From a virus (Duplodnaviria > Heunggongvirae > Uroviricota > Caudoviricetes), in the IMG/VR virus record IMGVR_UViG_2541047441_000020: a stretch of DNA of 5,741 nucleotides, one strand, 5' to 3'. A program made the position numbers and the translations under genes. Position 1 is the first letter of the stretch, and every line of letters starts with the position of its first letter. The notes beneath the pieces were generated by a model that had not been told where the DNA came from, searched no databases, and saw only the letters and a list, made by a program, of their open reading frames with translations. Shown here piece after piece: positions 354 to 3,455 of the stretch.

Positions 354-410
354 TCATAGTCCTCTTTCAGAGATGAACATTCAAACAGCATTTTCAGTAT
401 GGTAAAGCGC

Positions 411-472
411 GGGTGCGTTGAGGATGCCTGACACATCAGAGGTGGCGGGAGATTACTCCCCCGCTTGGTCTC
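411..472 (-). promoter_or_regulatory. hok mRNA 3' UTR with fold-back inhibition (fbi)-like element and an imperfect hairpin
   Basis: Plus-strand 411-423 (gggtgcgttgagg) is the reverse complement of 786-797 except for one extra g, so the 3' end of the minus-strand transcript can pair with its 5' end. An imperfect hairpin lies at 446-465 (gcgggag / atta / ctcccccgc). Confidence 0.4.
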
Positions 473-628
473 TTACTTCTCAGATTCGTAGTCTACGAAG
501 ACAGCGACCTCCGTCTGGCCGGTTCGGACTCGTACCTCGCAGAGGTCTTTCCTCGTTACCAGTGCCGTCACTATGACGGTTAAACAGATGACGATCAGGG
601 CGATTAACATCGCCTTTTGCTGCTTCAT
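473..628 (-). CDS. hok: Hok/Gef family type I toxin, 51 aa small membrane peptide
   Basis: ATG at 628-626 preceded by AAGGAG with 9-nt spacing; TAA at 475-473. The product MKQQKAMLIALIVICLTVIVTALVTRKDLCEVRVRTGQTEVAVFVDYESEK closely matches remembered HokC/HokD: hydrophobic helix, then RKxLCE, then TGQTEVAVF. Confidence 0.85.
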   Translation of the reverse strand: MKQQKAMLIALIVICLTVIVTALVTRKDLCEVRVRTGQTEVAVFVDYESEK

Positions 629-685
629 AGCCTGCTTCTCCTTGCCTTTCGGCACGTAAGAGGCTAACCTAGATTTGCCGTTCAT
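473..685 (-). CDS. mok: mok-like in-frame upstream reading frame (70 codons) that extends hok at the N-terminus
   Basis: ATG at 685-683 with GAGG 8 nt upstream, in frame with hok. Chromosomal hok loci carry an in-frame mok of about this length. Whether it is translated is inference. Confidence 0.45.
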   Translation of the reverse strand: MNGKSRLASYVPKGKEKQAMKQQKAMLIALIVICLTVIVTALVTRKDLCEVRVRTGQTEVAVFVDYESEK

Positions 686-745
686 AGATTGAGCCTCAGA
701 TTAATGTTAGGCGTCTTGCAGGACGCGTAATGTTAACTGGGGCTT
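677..745 (+). ncRNA. sok: Putative Sok-like antisense RNA overlapping the mok start and ribosome-binding site; limits approximate
   Basis: Candidate plus-strand promoter inside the mok N-terminal codons: -35 TTGCCT (642-647), 17-nt spacer, -10 TAACCT (665-670). A transcript from about 677 would be antisense to the mok start (685-683) and its GAGG. No clean intrinsic terminator was found, so the 3' end is a guess. Confidence 0.3.
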
Positions 746-796
746 TTCTCTATCTGCCGTTGGTGTTCATGCCCGAGGCAGATAGCCTCAAGCACC
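686..796 (-). promoter_or_regulatory. hok mRNA 5' leader (tac/ucb-like region), transcription start near 796
   Basis: The minus-strand sequence from 796 reads GGGTGCTTGAGGCTATCTGCCTC..., resembling the remembered 5' end of plasmid R1 hok mRNA. It contains a 9-bp inverted repeat (750-758 with 777-785). Confidence 0.45.
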
Positions 797-803
797 CGCA
801 GCT

Positions 804-833
804 ATTCTACTTAACTTCCCATTACCTCGCCAA
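804..833 (-). promoter_or_regulatory. Candidate sigma70 promoter for hok/mok mRNA
   Basis: On the minus strand: -35 TTGGCG (833-828), 18-nt spacer, -10 TAGAAT (809-804), 7 nt to the proposed start at 796. Confidence 0.5.
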
Positions 834-999
834 TATGAAATCGGTCAGAAAGACAGACGTCCCATAAGGACAACAACGGAAAAAGAGATTTTGCTTGATG
901 CTATTTACCTCTGCACCATGAAGTTGCGCCAAAATCCCAGTGGTGATAACAGGAATTTGGTTGTTGGTGATTGGGGAAAGAAGTACGTTAGACTGTGGG

Positions 1000-2786: not shown

Positions 2787-3455
2787 TCACTTTTCCGATA
2801 CAACACGGCGGGAAGAATCAGTAATCTGTCGAACAATATCCCGGTGCTTGTTCAGCTCCCGCAGCGCGGCGCAGACTCGCTCCCACTTCTGAACATCACT
2901 TTTCGCCCTGCGCAGCGCCAGGTTTGCCCTGCGAAGGGACGGAAAAATCAGCTCATCTGCTTGCGTTTCGGTAAACGATGGCAACGGCTGCACAATGTCC
3001 GCCACAGTTTCTGTTTTAATTTCTTCCTGTGTTGCGGCTTCCCGGACTGGTAACGCAGCACCTGCTGGCTGAGGAAAGGCCTTACCATCATTTTTCGTTA
3101 CCGGCGCGGCTTTCGGATCTGCTGGTAAATTACCCCCCGACATGCAGTAACGAAATTTACCGTTCTGATTAACGCGTGCCAGCCGCCCCGTTGCGGTTAC
3201 CACCGCCAGCGTGGAAGCAACCTTGCGAGTACTGACGCCGAACTTACCCGCCAGTTCCTCACACGTTTTAGCACCATCCTGACCGATAAACTCAACCATC
3301 ATGTCTGCGGTAACTTTTGGAGCGACCTCTTCGGTTACCACATCCGGCGCTTCAGGTTGTAGTGCCTGCCCTTCGGTTACCCCGGCTTCACCTTCGACAG
3401 CCAGAAACCAGGTGTGACCCGTTTTATCAACAACGCCATTTTTTTGAGTTCCCAC
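2787..3455 (-). CDS. Hypothetical prophage protein with winged-helix-like repeats; this ORF is probably the downstream part of a gene frameshifted at an A7 run
   Basis: 222-codon ORF whose frame opens only 3 codons upstream of its GTG start (3455), with no ribosome-binding site. The first in-frame ATG (codon 52) also lacks one. Contains [57 protein letters not shown]. Confidence 0.7.

Follow-up and report, generated by a model that had tools for sequence, protein, structure and literature searches.

A prophage hok/mok/sok type I toxin-antitoxin locus of the hokW/hokD subgroup with all its parts intact

The hok/sok loci are among the best-studied antisense-controlled toxin systems. A viral DNA stretch of 5,741 nucleotides (IMG/VR record IMGVR_UViG_2541047441_000020, hereafter the window) carries a candidate member of this family, and it raises the questions of whether the copy is complete, how its toxin would be held in check, and what it does for the element that carries it. 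The original prediction, made by a reader of the raw sequence, had proposed an apparently intact locus. Indeed, the minus strand from 833 to 411 is a complete, intact hok/mok/sok type I toxin-antitoxin module: it gives a full-length match to the Rfam family RF01794 and a match to the Pfam family HOK_GEF, and both the mok and the hok frames are uninterrupted. The account that best explains the window as a whole, and that we consider very probable, is that of an intact hok/mok/sok module within a lambdoid prophage, downstream of the replication genes.

The module and its setting

The window represents a segment of a lambdoid prophage, in the orientation opposite to that of prophage transcription. 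On its minus strand lie a YdaT-family gene (5739-5314), a replication-initiator-like (replisome organiser) gene (5306-4329), a gene for a DnaC/IstB-like ATPase (4322-3582), a DUF1627 gene that is frameshifted (3556-2787) and a DUF977 gene (2786-2358). An AT-rich stretch at about 900-2400, with a G+C content of 0.29-0.39, contains an alpha/beta-hydrolase-like open reading frame on the plus strand (1233-2006), and a gene of the YgiW/YdeI (BOF) family is found on the minus strand downstream of the hok locus (353-9). The exact combination of flanks seen here was absent from every complete E. coli genome and phage record searched. Matches to four further Rfam families (ceN48, CRISPR-DR57, sR2 and speF) were set aside as chance, given that they fell far under the gathering scores, with E values of 0.1-0.4.

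Upstream of the module, a terminator-like hairpin (858-872, minus strand), which occupies the same relative site in E. coli Z1323, could shield it from upstream transcription. The predicted hok/mok promoter follows on the minus strand, with a -35 box TTGGCG (833-828) and a -10 box TAGAAT (809-804) separated by an 18-nt spacer. With 9 of 12 consensus matches at this spacing, it is weak by consensus; across 117 related loci, conservation is seen in the -10 box but not in the -35 box. The RF01794 match covers 797-623 and all of the model (positions 1-157 of 157), at 105.6 bits versus a gathering score of 59 (E = 5e-24). Since it lies on the hok-sense strand, the match pertains to the hok leader and puts the likely transcription start (+1) at G797; taken alone, it is no proof of the antisense RNA. 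The first 12 nucleotides of the mRNA (797-786) would then be the translational activator element tac, GGGUGCUUGAGG.

Further downstream, the mok frame (685-473, minus strand) comprises 70 codons, ends at the hok stop codon and is 93% identical to MokW. The same length of 70 codons was found in 117 of the 132 sampled copies; the frame differs in about 15, some of which are cut by contig ends. Shine-Dalgarno sequences were located on the minus strand for both frames, GAGG for mok (697-694) and AAGGAG for hok (643-638), the latter conserved in the alignment of relatives. The original prediction had placed the promoter and both ribosome-binding sequences at these positions. The hok gene itself (628-473, minus strand; ATG at 628, stop at 475-473) encodes a toxin of 51 amino acids with one hydrophobic helix and cysteines at positions 15 and 30. 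This peptide scores 77.6 bits against Pfam PF01848 (HOK_GEF), for a cut-off of 22 (E = 5e-22), and 53.5 bits against the NCBIfam Hok family, which is under the cut-off of 73. Every functional element is intact and, except for one short patch described below, near-invariant across 117 loci, while the flanks vary.

Predicted folding switch and antisense control

The two ends of the hok transcript had been predicted to be complementary over 12 bp with one bulge, and this pairing was borne out. The tac element (797-786) forms 12 Watson-Crick pairs with the fold-back inhibition element fbi, CCUCAACGCACCC (423-411, minus strand), leaving C417 bulged. Complementarity of at least 12 bp with at most one bulge against the first 15 nt arose in 6 of 20,000 shuffles of the 68-nt 3' untranslated region. 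Folding of the 390-nt RNA places this helix in the minimum-free-energy structure (−153.5 kcal/mol, z = −5.8), and the pair probabilities of the helix stay at 0.92-1.00 with the 3' end set at 408, 380, 354, 200 or 1.

Fold predictions for full-length and 3'-shortened RNA gave the switch expected of such a locus. In the full-length fold, the anti-Shine-Dalgarno box ucb (AAGCCCC, 745-739, minus strand) sequesters the mok Shine-Dalgarno sequence, with A744-C741 and C739 pairing across GAGG; the helix enclosing ucb has six pairs that have changed on both sides among relatives. When the RNA ends at 445 (353 nt), G797-U790 pair instead with 745-739 (tac/ucb), and GAGGCU (697-692) pairs with the dcb element AGCCUC (665-660, minus strand), which yields the predicted Sok-target hairpin. 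Both helices of the shortened fold also belong to the Rfam consensus structure. A metastable 5' hairpin (794-770, minus strand) is predicted as well, in which nucleotides 4-13 (794-785) pair with nucleotides 19-28 (779-770). It appears in the centroid of the 353-nt RNA, is missing from the minimum-free-energy structure, and corresponds to the metastable structure of plasmid R1 (PMC9841398). A G+C-rich hairpin in the 3' untranslated region (464-445, minus strand) is present in the predicted full-length and shortened folds alike; 97.2% of its cells in the alignment of relatives are paired and two of its pairs have changed on both sides. By analogy with R1, it is likely to be the protective 3' end of the processed, active mRNA.

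Taken together, these thermodynamic predictions appear to reproduce all three states of the published R1 switch. In R1, a transient 5' hairpin prevents translation during transcription, the full-length RNA is closed by tac/fbi with ucb hiding the mok Shine-Dalgarno sequence, and the 3'-shortened RNA carries tac/ucb together with the hairpin of the mok Shine-Dalgarno region and dcb that is recognised by Sok (PMC9841398).

The predicted structure was compared with the variation among relatives. Scanning one genome per species yielded 44 hok loci, of which the 30 that keep both ends were aligned; these come from Escherichia, Shigella, Kluyvera, Citrobacter, Pantoea, Photorhabdus and one further enterobacterium. 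On the structure predicted for the window, 87.7% of cells pair, versus 38-45% when the partners are slid by one to three columns, and 29 pairs have changed on both sides, a number reached by none of 500 shuffles; the structure was predicted from one of the aligned sequences, which favours it somewhat in these counts. Within the tac/fbi helix, 17 loci have U-A and 11 have C-G at pair 4, and the GAGG/CCUC block becomes GAAG/CUUC in Citrobacter and GAGA/UCUC in Photorhabdus. The bulge is missing in Photorhabdus and Pantoea, whose pairs are shifted by one column, so that column-wise counts understate the outer half of the helix. A helix search performed locus by locus resolves this undercount: at least 11 tac/fbi pairs, starting exactly at the conserved GGG, are kept in 29 of the 30 loci. 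As read from the alignment, these compensatory changes show selection on the RNA fold.

The antisense side of the locus was approached through its promoter. The original prediction had placed a Sok-type promoter antisense within mok, and a candidate is found there on the plus strand (642-670), with a -35 box TTGCCT (642-647), a 17-nt spacer and a -10 box TAACCT (665-670). The stretch that holds both boxes does not differ by a single base from the sokW promoter of the Stx phages 933W and Sp5. A consensus promoter scan of the window did not flag it, because its -10 box matches the consensus at only three of six positions; the call therefore rests on identity to an experimentally mutated promoter and not on consensus strength. 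The TAACCT box is the one that was mutated with primer YO-421 to silence sokW (Takada et al., PMC8621323), and this mutation abolished the antitoxin activity (PMC8621323). Downstream of this promoter we infer, along with the transcription start and the 3' processing of the locus, a Sok RNA of about 71 nt (677-747, plus strand), with coordinates transferred from the sokW annotation in AF125520. The predicted RNA consists of a 14-nt 5' tail, a long hairpin and a terminal UUUU, and folds at −34.5 kcal/mol (z = −6.7).

Homology and the predicted folds suggest how these parts would act together. The stable mRNA would start at G797, and its 5' end would fold on itself during transcription. Once transcribed, fbi (423-411) would clamp tac (797-786) and let ucb (745-739) hide the mok ribosome-binding site, so that the RNA would escape both translation and Sok binding. 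Gradual trimming of the 3' end as far as the hairpin at 464-445 would free tac to capture ucb, and the mok ribosome-binding site would then pair with dcb (665-660) in a hairpin that presents the presumed target of Sok in its loop. For as long as it is made, the short-lived Sok (677-747, plus strand) would pair at this loop and the duplex would be destroyed. When Sok synthesis stops, mok would be translated, hok would be translated by coupling, and the 51-residue Hok would damage the inner membrane. Given the likeness to hokW-sokW and the results published for that locus, this molecular mechanism appears well supported by homology.

One part of this scheme, the 3' end, calls for a more careful statement. 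The original prediction gave a transcript of about 386 nt; the expected fold-back was recovered in the predicted folds, while its 3' end near 411 is one that we infer with no terminator prediction behind it. No intrinsic terminator was predicted between fbi and the YgiW-family gene in the window, and no promoter was predicted for that gene. The arrangement is shared with phage 933W, which has the same downstream YgiW/BOF-family gene; no terminator-like site was found there between fbi and this gene, and the first one follows the gene. By contrast, in loci of the hokD and R1 types fbi is followed, about 10 nt on, by a terminator-like hairpin. In the absence of such a site, the primary transcript may run into the downstream gene, which makes activation by 3' trimming less certain, and the transcript of about 386 nt may be a processing product. 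In the subtype with the YgiW flank, the toxin mRNA may thus be co-transcribed with a periplasmic stress-tolerance gene, in which case activation would need an internal cut and not 3' trimming.

A variable Sok-recognition patch and a mosaic locus

The exception to the near-invariance of the module is a hypervariable patch of 21 nt (672-692), bounded by the mok Shine-Dalgarno sequence on one side and the Sok -10 box on the other. The patch takes in codons 2-5 of mok as well as the spacer that precedes its ATG, and it coincides with the 5' single-stranded tail of Sok and the loop of the target hairpin. Among 132 loci, the patch has 17 haplotypes and an entropy of up to 1.9 bits, versus mostly <0.3 in the rest of the transcript; in this sample the search pattern required constant immediate flanks and left the more distant parts free to vary. 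All major haplotypes keep the target hairpin (−12 to −13.5 kcal/mol). The Sok tails of most major types differ from one another at 4-9 of 16 positions, with two near-duplicate pairs that differ at 2-3, and the tail type of the window differs from every other major type at 6 positions or more.

The abundance of three patch types was assessed by searching 5,426 complete E. coli genomes with queries of 45 nt specific to each patch. The type carried by the window is the commonest of the three, with 1,710 places in 1,627 genomes (30% of the complete E. coli genomes), followed by the 933W type with 709 places in 610 genomes and a third type with 577 places in 536 genomes. At most four copies of one type occur per genome. 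Avoidance of the same patch type by co-resident copies was considered and set aside: the excess copies observed, compared with a simple Poisson expectation that ignores the relatedness of the genomes, were 83 versus about 243 for the window type, 99 versus about 44 for the 933W type and 41 versus about 30 for the third type, which reveals no consistent avoidance over the 5,426 genomes.

A tentative and somewhat doubtful reading, which we put forward beside that of co-transcription with the YgiW-family gene, is that the patch is a specificity cassette. If so, the Sok tail and the target loop would change together, with the hairpin and its surroundings fixed. The prophage hok/sok modules would then form several common classes without cross-neutralisation, the window belonging to the commonest, and the toxin of each prophage would be controlled by its own antitoxin alone. 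Through recombination inside hok, the classes would be reshuffled among phages.

The window itself is a mosaic. It matches the type annotated as 'hokD' in prophages from the promoter to 518 and the 933W type from 496 on, which places the switch between 518 and 496. From this pattern of sequence matches, the window is evidently a recombinant of the hokW and prophage 'hokD' types. In the 132 sampled copies the patch type, the Hok C terminus and the 3' flank occur in many combinations, and that of the window is unique there. As a side observation, there is evidence for hok as a recombination joint between prophage modules.

Biological role and comparison with known systems

What the module does for its carrier was weighed against the published work on hokW-sokW. 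In that system HokW is toxic and sokW, expressed from its own promoter, neutralises the toxin (Takada et al., PMC8621323), partly in dependence on RNase III and Hfq (PMC8621323). Treatment with mitomycin C leads to the loss of sokW and to the RecA-dependent appearance of HokW in the inner membrane (PMC8621323). Northern blots also show shorter hokW RNAs, which are unassigned (PMC8621323). HokW is made on prophage induction, advances lysis and doubles the phage yield; upon deletion of hokW-sokW, growth arrest came about 40 min later and the phage yield was halved (PMC8621323). By extension, Sok may be lost when the prophage of the window is induced, and Hok would then help lysis and phage release. 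We favour this role, at a little short of an even chance, because it is the one indicated by the only direct evidence from a near-identical locus. Two considerations bear on its reach. The Sok tail of the window is unlike that of sokW at 6 of 16 positions, so that the published neutralisation work does not cover the pairing kinetics of Sok from the window. Moreover, the frameshift in the neighbouring DUF1627 gene means that the prophage may be decaying, in which case a role in lysis would be moot.

Two other roles, both raised in the original prediction, are less supported than assistance to lysis. The module might act by addiction: loss of the prophage, or of the AT-rich islet next to it, would be lethal to the cell, which would stabilise these elements. 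The molecular parts are predicted to be all present, namely a stable, slowly activated toxin mRNA and a short antisense RNA; hok/sok of R1 works by post-segregational killing (PMC9841398; bioRxiv 10.1101/2025.08.07.668861), and the same alpha/beta-hydrolase islet lies beside hok in other E. coli prophages. However, chromosomal hok loci tested earlier gave no post-segregational killing (2026 preprint, bioRxiv 10.1101/2025.08.07.668861), and the deletion of hokW-sokW had no effect on growth, in a paper that reports nothing on stability (PMC8621323). The hok module also reassorts freely with different neighbours and flanks, which indicates that it is not tied to the AT-rich islet, and we consider stabilisation by addiction unlikely. 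Exclusion of phages, in the manner of abortive infection, would have an incoming phage stop host transcription; Sok would then decay, and the cell would die from Hok before the phage could complete its cycle. The effect known from R1 is modest and was seen only at high copy number (PMC8621323). Moreover, hok is enriched in prophages and not next to defence systems (bioRxiv 10.1101/2025.08.07.668861), and a role in exclusion seems quite unlikely.

It could also be that the locus does nothing at present, its parts being conserved by recent descent or recombination while it stays unexpressed or permanently repressed in its host. The weakness by consensus of both the hok and the Sok promoters, the frameshifted DUF1627 gene and the visible decay of several relatives would agree with such a silent relic. 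Against it stand the intact functional elements, near-invariant outside the patch across 117 loci with varying flanks, and the compensatory changes, which point to selection on the RNA fold. The near-identical hokW-sokW is, furthermore, expressed and active (PMC8621323), and all of this makes a relic very unlikely. Help in lysis upon prophage induction thus remains the role that we tentatively prefer.

With respect to known systems, the locus is an ordinary copy of the hok/sok module of lambdoid prophages, of the prophage hokW/hokD subgroup, and was already known in the sense that it is 96.6-97% identical to hokW-sokW of 933W/Sp5 and to loci present in about 72% of the complete E. coli genomes; 3,919 of 5,426 contain a copy that spans 80% or more of the query. 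The subgroup was previously annotated in phage 933W (AF125520) and was characterised experimentally in 2021. With close copies in most E. coli genomes, the locus has little value as a discovery. It is useful as a clean positive control, because a reader of the raw sequence alone positioned every regulatory element correctly. Specialists may find interest in the sharply bounded Sok-recognition patch, in hok as a joint for recombination between prophage modules, and in the absent terminator, which perhaps couples hok to the YgiW-family gene.

The closest characterised relative is hokW/mokW/sokW of the Stx phages 933W and Sp5 (AF125520; PMC8621323), with 96.6% nucleotide identity over 380-819 of the window; many Stx phages carry this locus. 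The Sok promoter, the hok Shine-Dalgarno sequence, the 3' untranslated region, tac and fbi are identical, and HokW differs from the Hok of the window only by I34V. This near-identity does not extend to the Sok recognition tail, where the window has another common type of patch and a Mok that begins MNGKS rather than MLNTC. The DNA upstream of the promoter is also different, and hok of the window follows prophage replication genes and the AT-rich islet, whereas hok of 933W lies near the right end of the genome. The lambdoid prophage loci annotated as 'hokD' (for example in E. coli Z1323HEC0399, NZ_CP148349) are 97% identical over 401-860. They share with the window the promoter, the patch and the upstream neighbours (YdaT-like, replisome organiser, DnaC-like, DUF1627, DUF977 and alpha/beta hydrolase). 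Unlike the window, their Hok ends in VFTAYEPEE, and the terminator-like hairpin right after fbi is followed by DUF968, RusA and Q genes.

The relationship with plasmid systems is more distant. The hok/sok (parB) locus of R1 and the R1-type loci of IncF plasmids have the same architecture and predicted folding pathway, with tac/fbi, ucb, dcb, mok and an antisense Sok. In one R1-type IncF locus, L167, the equivalent tac/fbi pair, read by eye from the sequences, is GGCGCUUGAGGC / GCCUGAAGCGCC; the helix picked automatically as the best for L167 was an unrelated G-U-rich one and was discarded. HokW is only about 44% identical to Hok of R1 (PMC8621323), the Sok hairpin of the window exceeds the Rfam consensus by an insertion of about 16 nt, and the R1-type loci, unlike the window, have their terminator after fbi. 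The proven plasmid-stabilising role of the R1 locus is a further point of difference from the subgroup of the window.

Finally, the original prediction had stated that many chromosomal hok loci are inactivated, and the loci resembling those of E. coli K-12 illustrate this. The Hok peptides of K-12 hokD (relF) and hokC (gef) are 90% and 78% identical to that of the window. In a K-12-like hokD locus the DNA upstream of hok is unrelated, so that the whole upstream half of the module, with tac, mok and sok, is missing; in a K-12-like hokC locus, foreign DNA stands where fbi should be. The module of the window, unlike these two, has all of its parts.

Mosaic make-up of the hok module

The hok/mok/sok module carries a hypervariable patch with sharp borders (positions 672-692), which spans the 5' tail of the predicted antisense RNA Sok, the loop of the target hairpin, and codons 2 to 5 of mok. 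The patch occurs as 17 haplotypes among 132 related loci, and the hairpin and the sequence around it are nearly invariant. Of the complete E. coli genomes, 30% carry the patch type found in the window. The 132 hok copies also show patch types, Hok C-termini, and 3' flanks in widely reassorted combinations. Within this sample, no second instance of the combination seen in the window was observed, and none was seen in complete E. coli genomes or phage records. The hok module of the window (401-860) is a recombinant of two types, prophage 'hokD' on the 5' side and 933W hokW on the 3' side, with a crossover interval at 496-518.

Surroundings and other occurrences of the locus

Just upstream of the hok promoter, on the minus strand, lies a terminator-like hairpin (858-872), formed by TGTCCTTATGGGACG followed by a T-rich tail, with a conserved counterpart at the equivalent position in E. 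coli Z1323. An AT-rich islet occupies about 900-2400, with a G+C content of 0.29 to 0.39 versus about 0.5 in the flanks. It contains a 257-amino-acid ORF on the plus strand (1233-2006) whose homologues are named alpha/beta hydrolase in RefSeq; the ORF gave a sub-threshold Pfam esterase match and no NCBIfam match. The islet with this ORF adjoins hok in several E. coli prophages too. Farther away, compared with the intact gene of E. coli Z1323, the DUF1627 gene has a 1-nucleotide deletion at 3439-3445 that leaves seven consecutive A on the minus strand and breaks the gene into two ORFs of 59 and 222 amino acids. Either the gene is a pseudogene and the prophage is decaying, or the homopolymer was misread in sequencing.

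Three hok fragments (L014, L020, and L046) with 89 to 100% identity to the Hok of the window were found on tiny contigs (275 to 2,995 bp) assigned to Acinetobacter idrijaensis, Xanthomonas pisi, and a 'Candidatus Scatousia' MAG. The fragments probably represent enterobacterial DNA contamination and not true occurrences. A Kluyvera hok locus (L024) has the same unrelated DNA upstream as the K-12-like hokD locus L011, and therefore the truncated sok-less arrangement is not limited to E. coli K-12. The Hok peptides of these two loci are quite unlike each other.

The TACGAA site at Tyr47

Within 485-491 (Tyr47 codon at 488-490), the sequence TACGAA is unchanged in all 30 aligned loci, synonymous sites included, and is located in a predicted 7-nucleotide loop (CUACGAA) on a short stem. 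TACG is the recognition motif of TadA, and the hok site looks like this A-to-I editing motif. Recoding of Tyr to Cys by TadA at the equivalent position was reported for the hokC, hokD, and hokE mRNAs in a 2026 preprint.

The 3' side of the fold-back inhibition element

Downstream of the fold-back inhibition element (fbi) lies a gene of the YgiW/YdeI (BOF) family (353-9). No terminator-like site was found in the interval between them (354-423), an observation that also draws on L001 (2848-3350) and L002 (6457-6474), and no promoter was predicted for the gene. The hok gene and this OB-fold gene may therefore be cotranscribed in the subtype of the window, which lacks the terminator hairpin that stands immediately 3' of fbi in the hokD-type and R1-type relatives.
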